64,000 bases of DNA from Saprospiraceae bacterium (GCA_046329435.1 JAXLUR010000012.1:24051-88050), one strand, 5' to 3'. Positions 3,495-16,234 are shown, counted from the stretch's first letter. Program-made: numbers and translations. Notes: generated by a model not told the origin, from the sequence alone.

Positions 3495-3980
3495 TCAAAA
3501 CAGCCAGCAGAGCACGGGCAGTTCGCCTTTTGGGGCAAATACAAAGGCATTTTGACCAAAATCCGCGGCGAGGCGGGCGGCATTGCCCAGGGAAATCCCT
3601 GCGGCGCCAAAGATTTCTTCCGGCGGCCAGTCGCCCACATCGCCGATACCCAGGGCCGGCTCCAGGCAGGCGCAGTTGCCGGCAAGTTGTTGTTCGAGCA
3701 GGCGGTTGCGCGCTCGGTTGTCGGCCTCGGGCAGCCGAACCGAGCCGGGATTCCAGGCAGTCAGTACGGCCAGAGCGTCGGCCCGCTGCTGTGTCAGCCA
3801 CTCGTCGAGGGCCGGGCAAGGGCAATTGACGCGTATATCGACAGCCGGAGCGAGCAGCCGGTAGCAGGTATGTAAATAGGCTGTTAGCAGCCGTCGGTCG
3901 AGCTGTTTCGGAGAATCTTCGAGCGTTCGTATGGGTACGACGTGTTTTATCCTACTTTTGCGGCGCTTTAAGGCGGACAT
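3495..3980 (-). CDS. DUF3293-like hypothetical protein
   Basis: 161-aa ORF. The ...ALAVLTAWNPGSVRLPEADNRARNRLLEQQL... region resembles DUF3293 proteins. The family assignment is from memory, and the start codon is uncertain. Confidence 0.55.
   Translation of the reverse strand: MSALKRRKSRIKHVVPIRTLEDSPKQLDRRLLTAYLHTCYRLLAPAVDIRVNCPCPALDEWLTQQRADALAVLTAWNPGSVRLPEADNRARNRLLEQQLAGNCACLEPALGIGDVGDWPPEEIFGAAGISLGNAARLAADFGQNAFVFAPKGELPVLCWLF
3953..3960 (+). promoter_or_regulatory. putative Bacteroidota sigma-A -7 box (TAnnTTTG) for yidC
   Basis: TACTTTTG sits about 64 nt upstream of the yidC ATG at 4024. Confidence 0.4.
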
Positions 3981-4023
3981 CTTGCAAAGATTCCAACAAA
4001 CGCCCGCCTTGCAAACAGATTAC

Positions 4024-5931
4024 ATGGAAGAAAAACAAAGCAACCTTAGCACCTACATCGGCATGGGCCTGATTTTTCTGCTCCTTTTCTTTTGGATGCA
4101 GTACTCCGCGCCGCCCAAGCCAGATCAAACGGCACAACAAACGGCGCAGCAAACGACCGGAACGAACGCCGACCCTGCTGCAGCAGCCCCTACCCCTGCC
4201 GCCGCAGTGCCTGCCGCCGCAGCGGCGCCCCCCGACTCTCTTCAGAGCGCCCTGCTGGTCGCCAAATTCGGCGCTTTCACCCCGGCGGCTACCGGTCAGG
4301 AACAACTGCTCGAACTTGAAAACGACCTGGTAAAAATTGTTTTCACCAGCAAAGGCGGTCGCATTCGCGAAATCCGGCTCAAAAAGTATGACAAAATCAA
4401 TACGGATACGGCGGGTAACGACATCAAAAGCCCCGTTTACCTGCTGGAAGACGCCAAAAACCGCTTCGACTTCACGATTCCCGTGCAAGGCAGCGCCGCA
4501 GGCTCGGTCAATACCAGCGAACTGTACTTCGCAGGGGTCAAAAACGGCAACGCCGTCACGTTTCGCGCGCCGGTCAACGGCGGCGGGTATCTGGAACAAA
4601 GCTATACCCTGCGCGACGGCGATTACCACATCGACTACAAAATCGCCACGGTGGGTATGGAACAGGTGTTCCCCGCCGGGCAAGCCAACCTGCAACTGAC
4701 CTGGGTGAACCACCTCGACAAACTGGAGAAAAACCAGCAGTACGAGCGCACCATGTCAACGGTGTACTTCAAACCCAACGACAAAGACCCCGACTACTGC
4801 AACTGCCGTAAAAACGACAGCGAACAACTGGGCGACCAGCCGGTCAAGTGGATGGCGCACAACAACCAGTTTTTCAATACGTCGATCATTGCGCAGGATT
4901 TCTCTTTCCGCAATTTCACCGGCGAGACCCTGATGCTGACCGACGCCGACCCGGATCTGAAAATTCTGAAAACGACGGCCGTACTTCCGGTGCAAAACCC
5001 CAACGGCGGCTCGCTCAACATGGCCATTTACTCCGGCCCCAACGAATTCAAAAAACTACGGGCCTACGATGTCAGCCTGGAAGATATCATACCCTTCGGG
5101 TCCAGCATTTTCGGCGCCATCAACCGCTGGGTGATCCGGCCGATGTTCGTTTTCCTCTCGGGCTTTATCGGCAGCAAAGGCATTGTTATCCTGATGCTTA
5201 CGCTGCTGGTGAAACTGCTGGTGTATCCGCTCACCTACCGGATGGTGCACAGCCAGGCCAGAATGGCAGCCCTCAAGCCGCGTATGGAAGAACTGAAACG
5301 CAAACACGGCGACGACCAGCAGGCCATGTCGGTCGAGACGATGAAGATGTACAGCGAGTTCGGGGTCAATCCCCTGGGCGGCTGCTTCCCGATTTTGCTG
5401 CAAATGCCGATCTGGTTTGCGCTCTACCGCTTCTTCCCTGCGGCTATCGAATTCAGGCAGGAAGGTTTCCTGTGGGCGCACGACCTTTCGAGCTACGACG
5501 TGGCGTTCAAACTGCCGTTCATGATGCCCGGCTTCGGCAACCACATCAGCGCATTCACCCTGATCTGGGTAGCCACTACGCTCTGGTACACCTGGTATTC
5601 CATGAAGCAAATGGACAACTCGGCCATGCAAAATGACCAGATGAAGATCATGAAATACATGCAGTACTTCATGCCGGTCATGTTCATGTTCTTCTTCAAC
5701 AGTTTTGCTTCGGGCCTTACCCTGTACCTGTGTTTCAGCAACATCCTGAACATCGGCCAGACGGTGGTGACCAAACGGTACCTGATCAACCACGATAAAA
5801 TAAACGTGCAGCTGGAAAAAAACCGCCAGAAGCCCAAAAAGGAGACCGGGTTCCGCGCCCGGCTCGAACAGGCCATGAAGGAACAGCAACGCGTTCAGGA
5901 AGAACGGGCCAAACAGCAAAAAAAGAAGTAA
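4024..5931 (+). CDS. yidC: membrane protein insertase YidC (long Bacteroidota form)
   Basis: ORF 3931-5931 trimmed to MEEKQSNLSTYIGMGLIFLLLFFWMQY. It has a large periplasmic domain, then the conserved C-terminal 60-kDa insertase core (GCFPILLQMPIWFALYRFF). A Pro/Ala/Gln-rich low-complexity linker follows TM1. Confidence 0.92.
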   Translation: MEEKQSNLSTYIGMGLIFLLLFFWMQYSAPPKPDQTAQQTAQQTTGTNADPAAAAPTPAAAVPAAAAAPPDSLQSALLVAKFGAFTPAATGQEQLLELENDLVKIVFTSKGGRIREIRLKKYDKINTDTAGNDIKSPVYLLEDAKNRFDFTIPVQGSAAGSVNTSELYFAGVKNGNAVTFRAPVNGGGYLEQSYTLRDGDYHIDYKIATVGMEQVFPAGQANLQLTWVNHLDKLEKNQQYERTMSTVYFKPNDKDPDYCNCRKNDSEQLGDQPVKWMAHNNQFFNTSIIAQDFSFRNFTGETLMLTDADPDLKILKTTAVLPVQNPNGGSLNMAIYSGPNEFKKLRAYDVSLEDIIPFGSSIFGAINRWVIRPMFVFLSGFIGSKGIVILMLTLLVKLLVYPLTYRMVHSQARMAALKPRMEELKRKHGDDQQAMSVETMKMYSEFGVNPLGGCFPILLQMPIWFALYRFFPAAIEFRQEGFLWAHDLSSYDVAFKLPFMMPGFGNHISAFTLIWVATTLWYTWYSMKQMDNSAMQNDQMKIMKYMQYFMPVMFMFFFNSFASGLTLYLCFSNILNIGQTVVTKRYLINHDKINVQLEKNRQKPKKETGFRARLEQAMKEQQRVQEERAKQQKKK

Positions 5932-6463: not shown

Positions 6464-7492
6464 ATGGACATCATCAATCTGATCTCGGACACCGTCACAA
6501 AACCTACCGCGGGCATGCTGAAAGCCATGTTTGCCGCCGAGGTGGGCGACGATGTTTTTCGCGACGACCCATCGGTCAATGCGCTGGAGGAAAAATGCGC
6601 GGCGCTTTTCGGGCATCAGGCCGCGCTGTTTTGCCCTTCGGGCACCATGGCCAACCAGATTGCCCTCAAGGTGCATACCCGTCCGCTGGACGAAGTGGTT
6701 TGCGACGAGATGAGCCATATTTATCAATACGAGGTCGGGGGCTACGCTTTTCACAGCGGCATTTCCGTCAACCTGCTGCGCACGCCCAACGGCATCCTGC
6801 TGCCCGAACTGGTGGACTGGTCCGTCAAGCCGCTGTTCGACTGGTTGCCGCGCACCCGTCTGGTCGTGCTGGAAAATACCTGTAACAAGGGCGGCGGCAG
6901 CATTTACCCGATCGAGACGATAAAAGCCATCCGCGAGGTGTGCCAGCGGCGCAAACTCGCGCTGCACATCGACGGGGCGCGCATCTTCAATGCCCTGGTG
7001 GAAACCGGCAACCAGCCTGCCGAGATCGGCGCGCTGACCGACAGCATCAGCGTTTGCCTGTCGAAAGGCCTGGGGGCGCCCGTGGGTTCCGTGCTGATCG
7101 GCTCTTCCGAATTTATTGCAGAAGCACGGCGGGTACGCAAGGCGATGGGCGGCGGCATGCGGCAGGCCGGTTATCTCGCCGCGGCCGGTATCTACGCGCT
7201 CGACCATCAGGTGGAGCGCCTGAAAGAAGACCACGACAATGCCCGCAGGATCGCGACGGCGCTGCTCGATCTTCCGTATGTGACCAACGTCAGGCCCGTG
7301 GAATCCAACATCCTCATTTTCGACCTGAAAGCGCCGCACACCCCGTCCGTTTTTCTCGAATACCTGGTACACAACGGCGTGGTGGCCTCCGCATTCGGGC
7401 CGCAGACGATCCGTTTTGTGACGCACCTGGATGTGACAGCCCTGATGATTGATCAAACCATCGCCGTATTGCGCAAATTCGGGCAGAATTAG
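6464..7492 (+). CDS. ltaE: low-specificity L-threonine aldolase (PLP-dependent)
   Basis: 342 aa. The N-terminal DLISDTVTKPTAGMLKAMFAAEVGDDVFRDDPSVNALE and CPSGTMANQIAL motifs are typical of the threonine aldolase (beta-eliminating lyase) family. Confidence 0.88.
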   Translation: MDIINLISDTVTKPTAGMLKAMFAAEVGDDVFRDDPSVNALEEKCAALFGHQAALFCPSGTMANQIALKVHTRPLDEVVCDEMSHIYQYEVGGYAFHSGISVNLLRTPNGILLPELVDWSVKPLFDWLPRTRLVVLENTCNKGGGSIYPIETIKAIREVCQRRKLALHIDGARIFNALVETGNQPAEIGALTDSISVCLSKGLGAPVGSVLIGSSEFIAEARRVRKAMGGGMRQAGYLAAAGIYALDHQVERLKEDHDNARRIATALLDLPYVTNVRPVESNILIFDLKAPHTPSVFLEYLVHNGVVASAFGPQTIRFVTHLDVTALMIDQTIAVLRKFGQN

Positions 7493-7501
7493 GCACAGGT
7501 T

Positions 7502-8299
7502 TCACTCGTCCGCTTCTTCCTGTTTTTGACGGCGGAGTTCTTCCATTTCCTCGTCGGTCAGGGGCGGGGCTACCGACCATTGTTCGCGCCAGGAGCGCAC
7601 GGGCAGGCGTTCGAGGGGATACCAGTTGCCCCACCAGTCGAAATATTCCAGGCCGTTGAAATTGAGTTTGTAATCGAATTCGCTGGGCAGGTCGTACACA
7701 AAACCGGGGTAATAATAGCGGCGGCCCGACAGCTGGGCCAGTTGAATTTCGAGCAGCATGGTGAGTTGGCCCAGGCTTCGTGCCGTTTCTTCGGGGCGGA
7801 AGATGCAATAATTGCCCGCCATGCTTTCCCAGCCGAGGTGGTAGAAACTGGTGGCGATCAGTTCGCCTTTGTCGTACACGTCGAGCAATTCGCCCCGGCA
7901 GGGCATGATATCGCTCCAGTTGCTGAAAAAGCCGAAGATGGATTGTGGGCGATGGTGCGGCAGGCGTTCGGCGTGCTGATGAAAAAGCGCTTCGTGCTCG
8001 GCCGTGATGACCAGGGGGCGGCGGTAAATTTTCAGGTCTTTGTTGCGGCGCAGGCATTTGCGCTGGCTTTTGGTGAGGGAAAAGTTGCGCAGGTCGATGC
8101 GCAGCAAAACCACCCGGCAGGGGTGCCCCCGCCATTCCCAGTAGTTGCGGCGAAAAATCAGGTCGGACCAGTAGCACCAGCCGTCTTCGCACAGCCGGTC
8201 GAAAACCAGCGGGTGCATCGGCTCCATCGGAATGTAGGTTTCGACAGGAGCCGGATTGAAGGAGATATTGCGAAAAACCGGCAATGTTTTTGGGTGCAT
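7502..8299 (-). CDS. aminoacyl-tRNA-protein transferase of the ATE/Bpt family (N-end-rule arginyl/leucyl transferase)
   Basis: 265 aa. The ATE_C-like segment is ATSFYHLGWESMAGNYCIFRPEE...RRYYYPGFVYDLPSEFDYKLNFNGLEYF. An alternative start lies at the internal MEPMHP. Confidence 0.75.
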   Translation of the reverse strand: MHPKTLPVFRNISFNPAPVETYIPMEPMHPLVFDRLCEDGWCYWSDLIFRRNYWEWRGHPCRVVLLRIDLRNFSLTKSQRKCLRRNKDLKIYRRPLVITAEHEALFHQHAERLPHHRPQSIFGFFSNWSDIMPCRGELLDVYDKGELIATSFYHLGWESMAGNYCIFRPEETARSLGQLTMLLEIQLAQLSGRRYYYPGFVYDLPSEFDYKLNFNGLEYFDWWGNWYPLERLPVRSWREQWSVAPPLTDEEMEELRRQKQEEADE

Positions 8300-8399
8300 G
8301 TCAGTCGGTTTTGGGTTTTAAAGGATTATCTGTGGGTAAAGTTGCGGAACAGTGTTGTGATTTGTTTTTCTTTCTTACCCCAAAAATAGCCAATCTGCC

Positions 8400-8407
8400 T
8401 ACTTTTG
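8400..8407 (+). promoter_or_regulatory. putative -7 box (TAnnTTTG) for the carboxynorspermidine dehydrogenase gene
   Basis: TACTTTTG sits about 41 nt upstream of the ATG at 8448, in a divergent intergenic region. Confidence 0.4.
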
Positions 8408-8447: not shown

Positions 8448-9659
8448 ATGGCTTCTAAAGTATTAATCATCGGCGCCGGCGGCGTAGGTCGCGTAGTGGC
8501 CTACAAATGTGCCCAGCACCGCGATGTATTCGGCGAGATCATGCTCGCTTCCCGCACCAAATCCAAATGCGACGCCATCGCCGATGCCATTCACGCCGCT
8601 TACGGCGGCGCGCGCATCCAGACGGCCCAGCTCGATGCCGACCAGGTCCCGCAGACGGTGGCCCTGATCAAATCGTTTCAACCCGACCTCGTGGTCAACG
8701 TGGCCCTGCCCTATCAGGATTTGCCCATCATGGATGCCTGTCTCGAAACGGGGGTGAATTACATGGACACGGCCAATTACGAGCCCAAAGACGAAGCCAA
8801 GTTCGAATATTCCTGGCAATGGGCGTATCAGGACCGCTACAAAAACAAAGGCATCCTGGCCCTGCTGGGCTGCGGTTTCGACCCCGGCGTCACGTCCGTG
8901 TACACGGCCTACGCGGCCAAACACTACTTCGACGAGATCCACGAGCTCGACATCGTCGATGCCAACGCCGGCTCGCACGGCAAAGCCTTCGCCACCAACT
9001 TCAACCCGGAAATCAACATCCGCGAAGTGACGCAAAAAGGCCGCTACTGGGAAAACGGCCAGTGGATCGAAACCGAGCCGCACGAAATCTGGAAAGACAT
9101 CAACTACCCGGAAATCGGCCCCAAACGCTCCTACCTGATCTTCCATGAAGAGCTCGAAAGCCTGGTCAAAAACTACCCGACCCTGCGCCGCGCCCGCTTC
9201 TGGATGACCTTCTCCGAACAATACCTGACCCACCTGCGCGTCATCCAGAACATCGGCATGGCGGGCATCGAGCCGGTCAAATACAAAGGCGTGGACATCA
9301 TCCCGCTCGAATTTCTCAAAGCCGTGCTGCCCGCTCCCGAAGAACTGGGCGCCAACTATACCGGCTTTACCAGCATCGGCTGCCGCATCAAAGGCGTCAA
9401 GGACGGCAAAACCCGCACTTACTACGTCTGGAACAACTGCTCGCACCAGGATGCTTTCAGGGAAACCGGCACCCAGGCCGTGAGCTACACCACGGGTGTG
9501 CCGGCCATGATCGGGGCGCGCATGATCCTCGAAGGCAAGTGGAACGGCAAAGGCGTGTTCAACGTGGAGGAATTCAACCCCGACCCCTTCATGGAACGCC
9601 TCAACCTCGACGGCCTGCCCTGGCACGAACGGCTGGACATCGATCTGGAAATGGATTGA
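8448..9659 (+). CDS. carboxynorspermidine (carboxyspermidine) dehydrogenase/synthase, saccharopine dehydrogenase family
   Basis: 403 aa with an N-terminal Rossmann motif KVLIIGAGGVGRVVAYK. The length and sequence character match CANSDH/CASDH. The partner decarboxylase lies at 2279-3418. Confidence 0.85.
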   Translation: MASKVLIIGAGGVGRVVAYKCAQHRDVFGEIMLASRTKSKCDAIADAIHAAYGGARIQTAQLDADQVPQTVALIKSFQPDLVVNVALPYQDLPIMDACLETGVNYMDTANYEPKDEAKFEYSWQWAYQDRYKNKGILALLGCGFDPGVTSVYTAYAAKHYFDEIHELDIVDANAGSHGKAFATNFNPEINIREVTQKGRYWENGQWIETEPHEIWKDINYPEIGPKRSYLIFHEELESLVKNYPTLRRARFWMTFSEQYLTHLRVIQNIGMAGIEPVKYKGVDIIPLEFLKAVLPAPEELGANYTGFTSIGCRIKGVKDGKTRTYYVWNNCSHQDAFRETGTQAVSYTTGVPAMIGARMILEGKWNGKGVFNVEEFNPDPFMERLNLDGLPWHERLDIDLEMD

Positions 9660-9722
9660 TCAAACGGCATCGACCTTTTTACCCGCTCCGGCGGGCTTAT
9701 TCATAACAAGACCGTATGTTGG

Positions 9723-9755
9723 GCGCGCCGGACGCAAGTTCGGACGCGCTTTTTT
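9723..9755 (+). terminator. intrinsic terminator of the dehydrogenase gene
   Basis: gcgcgccgga-cgcaag-ttcgg(a)cgcgc is a 10-bp stem with one bulged A, followed by tttttt. Confidence 0.7.
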
Positions 9756-9757
9756 CT

Positions 9758-9765
9758 TATTTTTG
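9758..9765 (+). promoter_or_regulatory. putative -7 box (TAnnTTTG) for the ATPase/PIN-like gene pair
   Basis: TATTTTTG lies immediately after the upstream terminator and about 20 nt before the ATG at 9785. Confidence 0.45.
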
Positions 9766-9784
9766 TGCCTAAATTCCGCCAAAA

Positions 9785-10960
9785 ATGATTGTCAACCTGC
9801 ATATCGAAAACTTTCGAAGCCTCCGGAACGCCAGCCTGGAACTGGGGCGATTTACAGTATTGACCGGGGCGAACAACAGCGGAAAAAGCAGCGTGTTGTA
9901 TGCGTTGCAGGTGTTGCGGAATGTGGTGAAGAATCCGAATCGGTCGGTAGATGAGTTGCTGAATCTGGGTTTCCTCAATTTAAGCGGATTGGGTGCCTGC
10001 ATTTTTAATAAAGATAAACAGGAATCCATTTCTCTTTTTATCCATTCCATGAATCATCCGATACTTACTAGTTATGGATTTGGGATAAGAATGAGTGAAA
10101 AAGGAAGTACTCTGTTGGCAAATTCGAGTGGAGGCCCCCTGGATTATTCAATACACCTTCGGGTTAGTTTCCCCAACCCCTTGGACAAAGTTTATGTTAT
10201 GCGGGATTTGGGCATCGTTTGGAACGGCATACACGCCAGTCCATTAGTTGAAAAAGCCAAAGCCAACCTACTTCAAAAACAGGTAATTGACGGTATGAAC
10301 ACGCCGTCGACAGATATTGCCGCCACTGATATTACCCCAACCCATCGAGGCTTCTCCAAACCCGTTTTCAACCAAATTCCCCTCAACGGCACCATCCAGA
10401 CCGAAGACGAAGTTGCCACCCACCTGGCCATCGATAAAAATCTGCAGGCCAAAGTCAGCCATTATTTTGAAAAAATCACCGGCAAACGCTTTTCGGTACT
10501 GATGGGGCCCGGGGGCGGTTTTTTTTACCTTCAGGTACGGGAACCGGATTCGCCGTTTACCACTGAACTGGTCAACCAGGGCATGGGCGTCAACCAAATC
10601 CTTTTCCTGCTGGCCAAAATCCTGTACGACAAAAACCGGCTGATCGGCATCGACGAACCGGAAATACACCTGCACCCATCATTAATGGAGAAGTTTATCA
10701 GCGTGCTGGTTGAAATTGCGGAAAAAGAAGACAAACAATTCGTTTTCTCCACCCATAGCGAGCATTGGCTGATGTCGCTGCTCGCGGAAGTAAACGACAG
10801 TCATCTGAAAGCCAATGACCTGAAAGTCTATTACCTGTACAGAGAAGGTCCGGAGACCAAAATTGAATCGCAAAAAGTGGCGGACAACGGTCAACTGGAA
10901 GGCGGGTTACGTAATTTTCTGGAAGCGGAAATGCGGCTCACCCAACGTTTTCTGGACTAA
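9785..10960 (+). CDS. ABC-type AAA_21/AAA_15-family ATPase (DUF3696-like C-terminus); candidate defence-system ATPase
   Basis: 391 aa starting MIVNLHIENFRSLRN. It has Walker A GANNSGKS (K34), a signature-like QGMGVNQ, Walker B LIGIDEPEIHLHP (D290/E291) and H-loop FSTHSEH (H324). The tail is KVYYLYREGPETKIESQKVADNGQLEGGLRNFLE. A hand-counted sample, 10021-10120, is 36% GC. Confidence 0.85.
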   Translation: MIVNLHIENFRSLRNASLELGRFTVLTGANNSGKSSVLYALQVLRNVVKNPNRSVDELLNLGFLNLSGLGACIFNKDKQESISLFIHSMNHPILTSYGFGIRMSEKGSTLLANSSGGPLDYSIHLRVSFPNPLDKVYVMRDLGIVWNGIHASPLVEKAKANLLQKQVIDGMNTPSTDIAATDITPTHRGFSKPVFNQIPLNGTIQTEDEVATHLAIDKNLQAKVSHYFEKITGKRFSVLMGPGGGFFYLQVREPDSPFTTELVNQGMGVNQILFLLAKILYDKNRLIGIDEPEIHLHPSLMEKFISVLVEIAEKEDKQFVFSTHSEHWLMSLLAEVNDSHLKANDLKVYYLYREGPETKIESQKVADNGQLEGGLRNFLEAEMRLTQRFLD

Positions 10961-10977
10961 TCCCCCCACCGGAAGCC

Positions 10978-11466
10978 ATGGAATTTGTGTTCAACGAATG
11001 GTTTTTGAACTGGCACAGCCCGCTCGAAGCGACGCCAGAGCAAAGAAAAACCGTACACCGGATCATTAATTGGTTGATCGGCCAGCAAGATCACCGATTA
11101 GTGGTGATGAACCGAAGCCCCTTTATGGATAAATTAAACCTGTTCAGAAAAGACTTTGACTATGACCCTTTTTGCCGAAATTCATTAAAAACGTTTTACG
11201 CCCAAATAATTATCAACCTGACCATTTGCCGGCAAGTCGAAAAACCGCCTCAATTACCACCTGACATTGAAGAATTGCTGCAACGCCCCACAGAGCCGCC
11301 GTTCACGAATATCGAAAGTGATCGTTATCTGTTTGAATCGGCCGAAACAACCCATGAGAAGATCATCATTACAACTGATGAAAAACTCATCGGGCATTTT
11401 GCCCAAAGCGAACGATTTCGTCTCTGGACTGTTGATGAATTCCTGAAGAAACTGAACATTCCCTAA
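10978..11466 (+). CDS. hypothetical 162-aa protein with a PIN-like motif pattern (putative nuclease partner of the ATPase)
   Basis: It starts 17 nt after the ATPase stop. ESD115RYLFESAETTHEKIIITTD134EKL fits the PIN pattern (D-x3-h-x-A ... hhT-x-D). The N-terminus EFVFNEWFL resembles PIN strand 1, but with N6/E7 instead of Asp. A hand-counted sample, 11101-11200, is 37% GC. The fold call is inference only. Confidence 0.6.
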   Translation: MEFVFNEWFLNWHSPLEATPEQRKTVHRIINWLIGQQDHRLVVMNRSPFMDKLNLFRKDFDYDPFCRNSLKTFYAQIIINLTICRQVEKPPQLPPDIEELLQRPTEPPFTNIESDRYLFESAETTHEKIIITTDEKLIGHFAQSERFRLWTVDEFLKKLNIP

Positions 11467-11485
11467 GTGTCTGATACTCTGTAAC

Positions 11486-12169
11486 ATGCGCATCCTCCTC
11501 GTTGAAGACGAAGAATCCATCCGCGACCTTGTACGCCTCAACCTCGAACTGGAAGGCTACGAAGTCGTCACCACCAGCAATGGCAAAAAAGCCCTTGACC
11601 TCATCTATGGCCAGCATTTCGACCTGCTCCTCCTCGACGTCATGTTGCCCGACCTGGACGGGTTCACGATTACCGAACAGGTCCGCCTCAGCAACACGGA
11701 GGTGCCCATTCTGATGCTCACCGCCAAAGACATGGCCCAGGACCGCATCATGGGGCTGAAAAAAGGCGCCGACGACTACATCACCAAACCTTTTAACCTG
11801 GAAGAACTGCTGCTGCGCGTGCACAACCTCCTGCGGCGCAGCCAACGCGTCAAGGGTGAAGCGGCAGACGTGGTCGAATTCGGCCGCAACAAGGTGTCTT
11901 TCAACACTTTCGAGGCCATCACCTGGCGCGGCGAAACGCAGGTTTTGACCAAAAAAGAGGCCATGTTGCTCAAACTGCTCATCGAACGCCGCAACGAGGT
12001 GGTGAGCCGCAACCAGATCCTGCAGGCAGTTTGGGGCTACGATGTGTTTCCGAGCACCCGCACCATCGACAATTTTATCCTGGCCTTCCGCAAATACTTC
12101 GAGGAAGACCCCAAACAACCGAGGTTCTTCCACTCGATCCGCGGCGTGGGTTACAAGTTCACGGAGTAA
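11486..12169 (+). CDS. OmpR/PhoB-family two-component response regulator (no cognate kinase in the window)
   Basis: 227 aa. The receiver domain is MRILLVEDEESIRDLV...LLLLDVMLPDLDGF...LTAK, and the winged-helix output ends SIRGVGYKF. Confidence 0.92.
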   Translation: MRILLVEDEESIRDLVRLNLELEGYEVVTTSNGKKALDLIYGQHFDLLLLDVMLPDLDGFTITEQVRLSNTEVPILMLTAKDMAQDRIMGLKKGADDYITKPFNLEELLLRVHNLLRRSQRVKGEAADVVEFGRNKVSFNTFEAITWRGETQVLTKKEAMLLKLLIERRNEVVSRNQILQAVWGYDVFPSTRTIDNFILAFRKYFEEDPKQPRFFHSIRGVGYKFTE

Positions 12170-13089
12170 TGGAATTTGGCAAACTGCAGTCGCTCGAGGG
12201 CGTCGATTTTTCCCTGCCGCCCGATCCGCCCGAAAACGAGCTCGTGCTCGAACAACTTTTACCATCCGTGCAGCCCCGGGTTTATATCGGCGCCACAGGT
12301 TACAACATGAAACCCTGGGTCGGCAAATGGTATCCGGCAGGCGCGCGCGACCGCGATTTCGTGCGGCATTACGGGGCCCAGTTCAATACGATCGAACACA
12401 ACACCACCCATTACCGCATCCCCGACGAAGCCACCGTGGCGCGCTGGCGGGAAGAAGTGCCGGATGATTTCCGATACTGCCCGAAAGTGCCGCAAAGCCT
12501 GAGCCATGCGCGCGATCTGGGGGTGCATAGCCCCGAACTCCCTCTGTTTTGTCGGGCGATTGCCGGACTGGGCAACCGGCTGGGTTGTTGTTTTTTGCAG
12601 GTTTCGCCCCATTTTTCGCCGCAAAATCTGCCGGTGCTGGAGCGTTTTCTCGACAAATGGGCGCCCGATATTCCGCTTGCCGTGGAAGTGCGGCACGAAG
12701 ATTTTTTCCGTCCGACCGCCGCGGCACTGCGCTATTTTTCGCTGCTTGCCAGCGCCGGCGCCGCGGCCGTAATCACGGATGTGGCCGGACGCCGCGATGT
12801 TTGCCACATGCACCTGACCAACGGAACCGCCATGATCCGCTTCGTCGGCAACGGCCTGCACCCGACCGATTATTCCCGCATCGACGATTGGGCCTTGCGG
12901 CTCTCCACGTGGTTTGCAAAAGGGCTGCAAACGGCTTACGTCTTTACCCACGAACCCGACAACCTGCTCGCTCCCGAACTGGCCGCCTACGCCGCCGAGC
13001 GCTTTCAGGGCGCCGCACAAGGCCTGCAAACCCGTGGGCCCAAACCGCTCGGCCGCCCCGCGCAACAAACTTCGTTGTTTGACATTTAA
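12169..13089 (+). CDS. DUF72 (UPF0759/YecE-like) protein
   Basis: ORF 12031-13089 trimmed to the ATG at 12169 (MEFGKLQSLEGVDFSLPPDP...). That ATG overlaps the regulator stop as TAATG. The YIGATGYNMKPWVGKWYP...NTIEHNTTHYRIP motifs are typical of DUF72. Confidence 0.8.
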   Translation: MEFGKLQSLEGVDFSLPPDPPENELVLEQLLPSVQPRVYIGATGYNMKPWVGKWYPAGARDRDFVRHYGAQFNTIEHNTTHYRIPDEATVARWREEVPDDFRYCPKVPQSLSHARDLGVHSPELPLFCRAIAGLGNRLGCCFLQVSPHFSPQNLPVLERFLDKWAPDIPLAVEVRHEDFFRPTAAALRYFSLLASAGAAAVITDVAGRRDVCHMHLTNGTAMIRFVGNGLHPTDYSRIDDWALRLSTWFAKGLQTAYVFTHEPDNLLAPELAAYAAERFQGAAQGLQTRGPKPLGRPAQQTSLFDI

Positions 13090-16022: not shown

Positions 16023-16054
16023 TTGTCGCTTCGAAAAAACGACTCTTATCTTTG
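16023..16054 (+). promoter_or_regulatory. putative Bacteroidota promoter (-33 TTG / -7 TATCTTTG) for tRNA-Gly
   Basis: TTG at 16023-16025 and TATCTTTG at 16047-16054, with a 21-nt spacer. It is about 39 nt upstream of the tRNA 5' end. Confidence 0.5.
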
Positions 16055-16198: not shown

Positions 16199-16234
16199 CT
16201 TTTATGGCCTATTTTTGTGACCATGAGTTCAGGA

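Follow-up and report, generated by a model that had tools for sequence, protein, structure and literature searches.

An NsnB-like ABC ATPase paired with a stand-alone PIN-fold protein in Saprospiraceae: a candidate two-gene defense module

Among the described immune systems that combine an ABC ATPase with a nuclease, Menshen and HEC-03 offer the closest comparison to a pair of adjacent genes in a Saprospiraceae bacterium, which encode an ABC ATPase and a small protein with a predicted PIN fold and are located in a 64,000-nucleotide (nt) stretch of the genome (GCA_046329435.1 JAXLUR010000012.1:24051-88050; here called the window). Menshen reportedly consists of the proteins NsnA, NsnB, and NsnC and is said to go back to Millman and colleagues in 2022. 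NsnB is an ABC ATPase of the AAA_15 type that carries a terminal DUF3696 helix, and NsnC combines an N-terminal PIN-like domain, which lacks the D-E-D-D residues, with a C-terminal nuclease (PMC12065111). The PIN-like domains of Menshen have been judged inactive, and in an AlphaFold 3 prediction, the C-terminal tails of an NsnB dimer are arranged around the PIN-like domain of NsnC (PMC12065111). Sporadic domain loss has been mentioned for the system, and the Walker B motif of S. silvestris NsnB carries E-N (PMC12065111). The Menshen survey was seeded on NsnA (PMC12065111), so pairs lacking this protein could not be collected.

HEC-03 consists of two genes that encode an ABC ATPase and a VapC-like PIN protein (Payne et al., bioRxiv 10.1101/2024.01.29.577857). 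Both are required for phage defense in E. coli, the system is toxic on over-expression, and it was discovered embedded in Hma defense systems (bioRxiv 10.1101/2024.01.29.577857). With HEC-03 and Menshen, the combination of an ABC ATPase and a PIN domain is a known and validated design, and the statement in the initial annotation that no named system pairs this class of ATPase with a PIN-like protein has to be withdrawn: HEC-03 is a validated pair of this kind, and NsnB and NsnC form another. PARIS (AriA-AriB) and Septu (PtuA-PtuB) also join an OLD-type ABC ATPase to a separately encoded nuclease, which is bound to the oligomeric ATPase under the control of ATP (PMC12065111).

The pair in the window has the following layout:

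9785-10960, + strand: ATPase gene, 391 amino acids, start ATG, stop TAA
10978-11466, + strand: gene of the PIN-fold protein, 162 amino acids, start ATG, stop TAA

The two genes are separated by 17 nt, and a further 19 nt separate the PIN gene from the ATG of a response-regulator gene at 11486; both reading frames, both gaps, and the co-directional order are as the initial annotation had them. A small-protein profile from a 31-sequence subset recovered 73 metagenome loci, of which 65 were informative. An ATPase homolog is located directly upstream on the same strand in 64 of the 65, mostly at a distance of 16-50 nt, and the pairing holds down to small-protein identities of 22-30%. The same arrangement is present at every genome locus examined. 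Because of this near-universal pairing, which also bears out the earlier claim that the genes are conserved neighbors, the ATPase gene and the PIN gene are a genuine two-gene module. The exceptions belong to one group of similar loci: L103, the sole unpaired locus, has no ATPase match, whereas L102 and L104 retain an N-terminal ATPase fragment only and were counted as adjacent. The copy in L104 (5319-6474) is decaying; its ATPase is reduced to a 73-residue Walker A fragment and frameshifted pieces, and the PIN reading frame is still open, with conserved residues lost (SDTCLLKAA vs. SDxYLFExA). Such decay implies that a genome can do without the pair and that the PIN gene may persist after the ATPase gene has been lost.

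The product of the first gene is an ABC-type ATPase of the AAA_15/AAA_21 (“OLD-ABC”) class that resembles NsnB and has intact catalytic motifs. It matches the Pfam families AAA_15 (2.2e-28) and AAA_21 (4.4e-24). The top match in PADLOC is NsnB (1.3e-37; residues 1-378 against positions 1-331 of the 345-position model), which is also the only specific model matched over its full length. It is followed by “AriA” models with lengths similar to those of the generic AAA_15 and AAA_21 models of Pfam (373 and 304 positions), and the match to the HEC-03B model (1e-27) is weaker than that to NsnB and split into two stretches. Profile searches of the PDB retrieved OLD (2e-13), GajA (3e-8), and PtuA (4e-6), and the structural matches found with Foldseek comprise the heads of Rad50 and SMC proteins, PtuA, and OLD. 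Pfam, PADLOC, PDB profiles, and Foldseek thus agree with the proposed assignment to the ATPase class of PtuA, AriA, and OLD/GajA. The designation “DUF3696-like”, by contrast, is not supported, because Pfam PF12476 had no match in the ATPase at E ≤ 1 and is carried by one of 120 homologs, although a terminal helix is predicted.

The motifs quoted in the initial annotation for both proteins are all found at the residues given there. In the ATPase, they comprise GANNSGKS at residues 28-35 (K34), QGMGVNQ at 265-271, LIGIDEPEIHLHP at 286-298 (D290/E291), and STHSEH at 322-327 (H324); in the small protein, they are N6/E7, D115, and D134. An alignment of 61 ATPase sequences is invariant in Walker A (G28 to K34 and S36), the GxG signature (N264-x-G266-x-G268-x-N270-Q271), Walker B (D290-E291-P-E-x-H-L-H-P), the H-loop (S322-T-H324-S-E), and a C-terminal motif (G369-Q370-x-x-G373-G374-x-x-x-F378). 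The AlphaFold2 (AF2) model of the protein (confidence score pLDDT, 89.4) has a beta-hairpin at residues 346-363 and, at lower confidence, a terminal helix at 376-389; the C-terminus also has a conserved NGQxEGGLxNF loop. A variable insert occupies roughly residues 60-180, and the model contains no coiled-coil insert of the Rad50/SMC type.

The second gene encodes a protein that had been said to belong to no nameable family, and it found no match in any sequence library scanned: searches of Pfam, PADLOC, NCBIfam, PHROGs, and the PDB (phmmer and profile search) returned nothing meaningful. When 130 members of its family were scanned against Pfam and PADLOC, isolated matches at chance level were obtained; in the PIN clan of Pfam, the window protein has no match and one of the 130 members matches PIN_9 (E = 0.0075). 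A word-indexed search yielded 21 clusters, whose organism-named sources are mostly Saprospiraceae, and an exhaustive profile search yielded 182 clusters (50% identity) among 1.8 billion representatives. Since nearly all of the latter are 145-170 amino acids long, the family consists of stand-alone, single-domain proteins.

A PIN fold is confidently predicted for this protein by structural modeling. The AF2 model (pLDDT, 91.6; predicted template modeling score, 0.85) is a single domain of alternating strands and helices. Its top match among PDB structures in Foldseek is the RNase P HARP (7og5; E = 1.1e-3; template modeling score, 0.57), other matches include VapC4, Nmd4, PRORP, SMG5, and proteins of the Utp23/Utp24 type, and the top ranks are almost all PIN nucleases; PIN proteins also lead the matches in a viral structure library. 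The E-values are modest and the matches consistent. Together with the invariance of two acidic residues, D115 and D134, these matches uphold the initial description of the protein as PIN-like.

Across the 130 members, which share a mean identity of 24%, no variation is seen at D115, L118, and D134, and conservation reaches at least 90% at E7, W8, K52, Y117, T132, and L137. The conserved site comprises N6-E7-W8 at the end of strand 1, K52, S114-D115 at the N-terminus of a helix, and T132-T133-D134 after strand 4. The canonical PIN consensus reads “vvlDTnvl ... D..l.A.A ... lvT.D..f”. We take D115 and T132-x-D134 to be the canonical positions 3 and 4 and N6 to be position 1, with the Glu of position 2 missing; the T-x-D and D-x-x-hydrophobic-x-x-x-A motifs are presumably in register with the consensus. 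The site is therefore conserved but non-canonical, and the protein is probably competent for catalysis.

The likeness to Menshen is most evident in the ATPase, which fits the NsnB model over its full length and shares with NsnB the layout of an ABC core and a (predicted) terminal helix. In both ATPases, GxG replaces the SGG signature, and an Arg possibly replaces the Gln of the Q-loop (R188 in the window protein, if the residues are equivalent as we infer). Moreover, the next gene downstream codes for a PIN fold, as does the N-terminus of NsnC. Unlike Menshen, however, neither this locus nor 36 related loci have an NsnA (ParB-DUF262 and ParBDB) upstream; the 130 neighboring open reading frames (ORFs) at these 36 loci have 25 families listed as recurrent, none of which is DUF262, and the motif DGxQR does not occur in a plausible frame in the 64-kb window, which is a weak test. 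The partner is a single PIN domain of ~150-160 amino acids, in a family whose members are almost uniformly 145-170 amino acids long, without a C-terminal nuclease or toxin domain, and none of its 130 members matches a PADLOC model of NsnC. The acidic residues missing from the PIN-like domains of Menshen are conserved here (D115 and D134 invariant; E7 at least 90%), Walker B has the canonical D-E instead of E-N, and the DUF3696 family of Pfam is not detected in the ATPase.

HEC-03 shares with the pair the organization of an ABC ATPase and a separate PIN-domain protein in a two-gene operon, and its ATPase model in PADLOC is matched at 1e-27. The PIN partners, by contrast, are not detectably related in sequence (no match for the window protein; one of 130 family members matches HEC-03A at E = 0.0033, which is noise), and the pair is solitary among housekeeping genes rather than located within Hma systems. 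The two sources use the subunit names in opposite ways: HEC-03A stands for the ATPase and HEC-03B for the PIN protein in the preprint, whereas the 458-position model of PADLOC-DB that matches the ATPase is labeled HEC-03B (the models concerned are PDLC04147 and PDLC04148). PtuA of Septu is among the solved structures and sequences closest to the ATPase, but the effectors of PARIS and Septu are Toprim/DUF4435 (AriB) and HNH (PtuB) proteins instead of PIN proteins; no homolog of AriB or PtuB is present, and neither PADLOC nor Pfam matches the small protein, whose predicted fold is PIN and not Toprim. VapC4 and other VapC structures are among the top fold matches of the small protein. It differs from VapBC modules in that its partner is a 391-residue ABC ATPase and not a small DNA-binding antitoxin, that it has no Pfam PIN match, that the first catalytic Asp is replaced by Asn, and that the second acidic position is absent. 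As judged from sequence comparison, the pair belongs to neither Menshen, because it has no NsnA and no effector domain and has kept the acidic residues, nor HEC-03, because its small protein is not detectably related to the HEC-03 PIN.

The two genes are the ORFs with the lowest GC content among the ~50 in the window (ATPase gene, 0.474; PIN gene, 0.436), and their GC content at third codon positions (GC3) is 0.56 and 0.50, respectively, compared with a window mean of 0.68 (standard deviation, 0.06). A recount of local GC content (10021-10120, 0.36; 11101-11200, 0.37; 9001-9100, 0.53; 11601-11700, 0.58) reproduced the earlier hand counts, with a single deviation in the last segment (59% in the initial annotation). 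The conclusion drawn from them, that the genes form a recently inserted foreign islet, is refuted by the same junction and the same low GC3 in relatives and by the co-divergence of the pair with its flanks, an outcome that the initial annotation had itself named as one that would overturn its claim. The order dehydrogenase, pair, response regulator is common to seven related loci (L005, L011, L013, L016, L093, L094, and L096); L009, whose contig begins at the ATPase, has the downstream order (pair, regulator, DUF72, polyphosphate kinase [PPK]). The low GC3 of the pair recurs in all relatives measured (L005, L009, L011, L013, and L016), with ~0.5 in the pair and 0.72-0.79 in the flanks at the shared junction, and is likewise below that of the flanks at a second junction. 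This recurrence identifies low GC content as a lasting property of the pair rather than a sign of recent arrival.

The encoded proteins have the following amino acid identities to their homologs at the related loci:

Dehydrogenase: 99% in L093, 88-90% in more distant loci
Response regulator: 97% in L093, 81-84% in more distant loci
ATE: 94% in L093, 65-69% in more distant loci (45% in L011, where the ATE call is doubtful)
ATPase: 87% in L093, 58-63% in more distant loci
PIN-fold protein: 88% in L093, 45-54% in more distant loci

The groupings of the window with L093 and of L013 with L016 agree between flank and pair genes, which makes a repeated replacement of the cassette unnecessary as a cause of the low GC content. 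Between the window and L093, the ratio of nonsynonymous to synonymous substitutions (dN/dS) amounts to 0.081 (ATPase) and 0.082 (PIN-fold protein); the values in the flanks are 0.064 (ATE), 0.041 (regulator), 0.035 (PPK), and 0.012 (dehydrogenase). With a dN/dS of ~0.08, both genes of the pair are functional and under purifying selection, and their rate of evolution exceeds that of their flanks. Their higher dS is comparable to that of flank genes with weak codon bias, for example PPK and ATE. In this Saprospiraceae lineage, the pair is of old standing, has been inherited vertically, and is not a recent insertion.

In other lineages, the pair occupies unrelated junctions, for example one with SmpB and peptidase S8 genes and one with a GSDH-like gene, and must therefore have relocated at some point. 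The initial annotation had proposed to check whether the junction is empty in related genomes; instead, the pair is present there in diverged Saprospiraceae, and no clean empty site, with the dehydrogenase directly before the regulator, was found among close relatives, so the insertion is undatable from these loci. L014 and L017 lack the pair but have unrelated genes on the opposite strand at this position (synteny breaks), and L015 is too short. In L014, the place directly downstream of the dehydrogenase is taken by a strongly repetitive ORF (7101-7580, - strand) that is rich in Ala and Lys, contains nearly identical units of ~50 amino acids (MEKARAAAAANRAAKGQSAKPKK...), and recalls proteins of the histone H1 or AlgP kind.

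On either side of the pair is one copy of an exact direct repeat of 15 nt, ACGCCTCAACCTCGA (9596-9610 and 11533-11547). Both copies are in frame and code for RLNL(D/E), one at the C-terminus of the dehydrogenase and the other at the N-terminus of the response regulator. The repeat was rejected as a target-site duplication and is regarded as a coding coincidence, because the peptide is conserved in relatives and the identity of the DNA is not. No integrase, transposase, or genuine flanking repeat is present at the pair, as already noted in the initial annotation.

The boundaries and putative transcription signals of the locus are as follows:

9721-9757, + strand: intrinsic-terminator-like hairpin and T-run (fold and sequence), 3' of a carboxynorspermidine/saccharopine-type dehydrogenase gene
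9758-9765, + strand: candidate Bacteroidota-type -7 box (TAnnTTTG), TATTTTTG (sequence), with the ATPase ATG 20 nt further on
11486-12169, + strand: OmpR-type response-regulator gene (ORF), outside the module and listed for context only

The hairpin ahead of the T-run (9721-9751) folds with -21.2 kcal/mol (z = -2.5 against shuffles), in support of the terminator claimed upstream of the pair, and is absent from the list of a simple terminator scanner; it marks the upstream boundary of the transcription unit. The -7 box is present as annotated, but its role as a promoter is only plausible, because TAnnTTTG is not enriched above chance in the window (28 observed vs. 23.4 expected). The motif is located 5' of several genes and of both tRNAs of the window. 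Two boxes, at 8381-8388 (-) and 8400-8407 (+), precede the divergent ATE and dehydrogenase genes, and two more, at 16047-16054 (+) and 16210-16217 (+), are found just 5' of tRNA-Gly and tRNA-Leu. These positions are consistent with promoters of the Bacteroidota type.

The response-regulator homologs in relatives have Response_reg and Trans_reg_C domains. Since the gap of 19 nt contains no terminator on the + strand (terminator scan between 11466 and 11486), the regulator gene is probably co-transcribed with the pair and probably read from the promoter of the pair or from one within the PIN gene. In all relatives with the same junction, the two genes are 0-72 nt apart; the gaps in L013 (10027-10030) and L009 (1833-1838) are short, and genes for DUF72 and polyphosphate kinase come next. 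In the window, a 352-residue ORF is listed at 12031-13089, with a TTG start inside the regulator gene. Its DUF72 homolog in L093 (306 amino acids) starts at the stop of the regulator, which places the true start in the window probably near 12169.

The neighborhood of the pair, assessed from the 130 ORFs at 36 loci, consists almost entirely of housekeeping genes (radical SAM proteins, PdxB-like dehydrogenases, MetH, response regulators, and a carboxyltransferase, among others), and no third gene recurs beside the pair. PADLOC matches among these neighbors are generic (radical SAM, subtilase, and one UvrD-like helicase). L011 has a ParE-type toxin-antitoxin module (3979-4551) inserted between its PIN and response-regulator genes, and L095 has a ParDE module (8521-9062) ~800 nt downstream of the pair. 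Possibly, the region 3' of the pair is a minor hotspot of insertion.

We slightly favor the interpretation that the pair is a self-contained module for phage defense or abortive infection, in which the ATPase would control the PIN protein via its C-terminal tail and ATP-dependent release or activation of the latter would lead to cleavage of RNA. The NsnB-like ATPase would oligomerize by its ABC head, hold the PIN-fold protein with the tail of C-terminal hairpin and helix, and sense an infection cue with its variable insert. Binding or hydrolysis of ATP would then release or activate the PIN-fold protein, whose putative acidic pocket (E7/D115/D134) would cut tRNA, rRNA, or mRNA and thereby arrest the infected cell. 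The tail-mediated complex, the nuclease activity, the RNA target, the phage trigger, and the defense phenotype are all proposed because of the likeness to Menshen, HEC-03, PARIS, and Septu. A role in defense is supported by the class and intact motifs of the ATPase, the PIN fold with its conserved acidic residues, the near-obligate pairing, the purifying selection on both genes, the precedents of HEC-03 and Menshen, and the accessory-gene behavior of the pair, which is rare and patchy, occupies several junctions, evolves faster than its flanks, has a lasting low GC content, and has ParE neighbors.

Several observations weigh against this interpretation. The putative active site departs from the canonical D-E-D-D, with N6 (beside E7) at position 1, a non-acidic position 2, and K52 nearby. 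The association with defense islands envisaged in the initial annotation was not found in the 130 ORFs of the 36 loci (a comparison without formal background control), an absence that the annotation had likewise listed as refuting, and tblastn searches of 72,556 plasmids and 50,697 phage records did not detect the small protein. The pair has kept one junction over considerable divergence and co-diverged with its flanks, which is less typical of mobile defense cargo. Finally, the PIN-like domains of Menshen are adaptors judged inactive and predicted to bind the tail of NsnB (PMC12065111).

A further possibility, which we consider rather doubtful, is that the two-gene form represents a minimal and possibly ancestral Menshen with an active PIN (N-E/K/D/D site) and the ATPase alone as sensor and switch; the PIN would later have become an inactive adaptor after fusion of a nuclease, and NsnA would have been added as a DNA sensor.

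Two other explanations stay alive because the pair has no defense-island or mobile association and a long vertical residence. It is unlikely, although compatible with much of the genomic context, that the genes form a cellular pair for DNA repair or RNA turnover, with a Rad50/RecF/SbcC-like ATPase and a PIN/FEN-like nuclease that might be tied to the regulator, DUF72, and polyphosphate kinase genes. Such a role would agree with the Rad50 and SMC heads among the top fold matches of the ATPase, the housekeeping context throughout, the purifying selection, the vertical inheritance at one junction 0-72 nt from the regulator gene, and the lack of plasmid or phage matches. However, members of the family are very scarce and unevenly distributed (182 clusters out of 1.8 billion representatives), and in other lineages, the pair occupies unrelated junctions that lack the regulator; it also outpaces its flanks in evolution and stays atypical in GC content. 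Moreover, the closest specific relatives of the ATPase are those of defense systems (NsnB, OLD, GajA, and PtuA), the coiled-coil insert of Rad50/SMC proteins is lacking, and the decayed copy in L104 indicates that the pair is dispensable.

The chances are also low that the pair is an addiction module akin to toxin-antitoxin systems, with a VapC-like RNase toxin neutralized by the ATPase and maintained by post-segregational or selfish stabilization. The PIN fold has the size of VapC, the two genes form a tight operon, solitary cassettes are scattered among housekeeping genes, ParDE modules adjoin the pair at two loci, and induced HEC-03 is toxic (bioRxiv 10.1101/2024.01.29.577857). Yet the partner is an ABC ATPase of 391 residues with intact catalytic motifs instead of a small DNA-binding antitoxin, the pair is absent from the plasmid collection, and in L104, the ATPase has decayed while the PIN ORF is open, which fits poorly with a lethal toxin in need of an antitoxin, although the PIN protein of L104 has lost conserved residues as well. 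The boundary between toxin-antitoxin systems and abortive infection is blurred, and this explanation partly overlaps with the defense module favored above.

It is improbable that the pair is a stripped-down remnant of Menshen that has lost the effector and NsnA and in which the PIN protein is a non-catalytic, NsnC-like adaptor, non-functional or merely RNA-binding: NsnB is the best model for the ATPase, Menshen offers precedents for inactive PIN-like adaptors and for sporadic domain loss (PMC12065111), and the first canonical Asp is an Asn and the canonical Glu is missing, but the stand-alone architecture is the rule in a large and coherent family of ~180 clusters and not an occasional truncation, purifying selection acts on both genes, the invariant D115 and D134 and the almost invariant E7 and T132 (at 24% identity) set the family apart from domains reported to lack the catalytic residues, none of the 130 members matches the NsnC model of PADLOC, and Walker B has kept the canonical D-E that is E-N in S. 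silvestris NsnB.

The design of the pair is already known; what is new here is the combination of an NsnB-like ATPase with a stand-alone, possibly active PIN protein in the absence of NsnA or a fused effector. The locus also calls for caution in island-based discovery, because its low GC content is no sign of recent acquisition; “guilt by association” screens would miss such a module, which stands alone, is passed on vertically, and has a lasting low GC content. If the proposed function is confirmed, a compact, Bacteroidota-centered branch would join the immune systems that consist of an ABC ATPase and a nuclease, and the small protein would define a PIN-fold family that is unrecognized by Pfam, PADLOC, NCBIfam, and PHROGs. 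The pair would then provide a simple two-protein system for the control of a PIN protein by an NsnB-type ATPase, with a bearing on the mechanism of Menshen, whose PIN-like domain has been assumed to be a mere adaptor.

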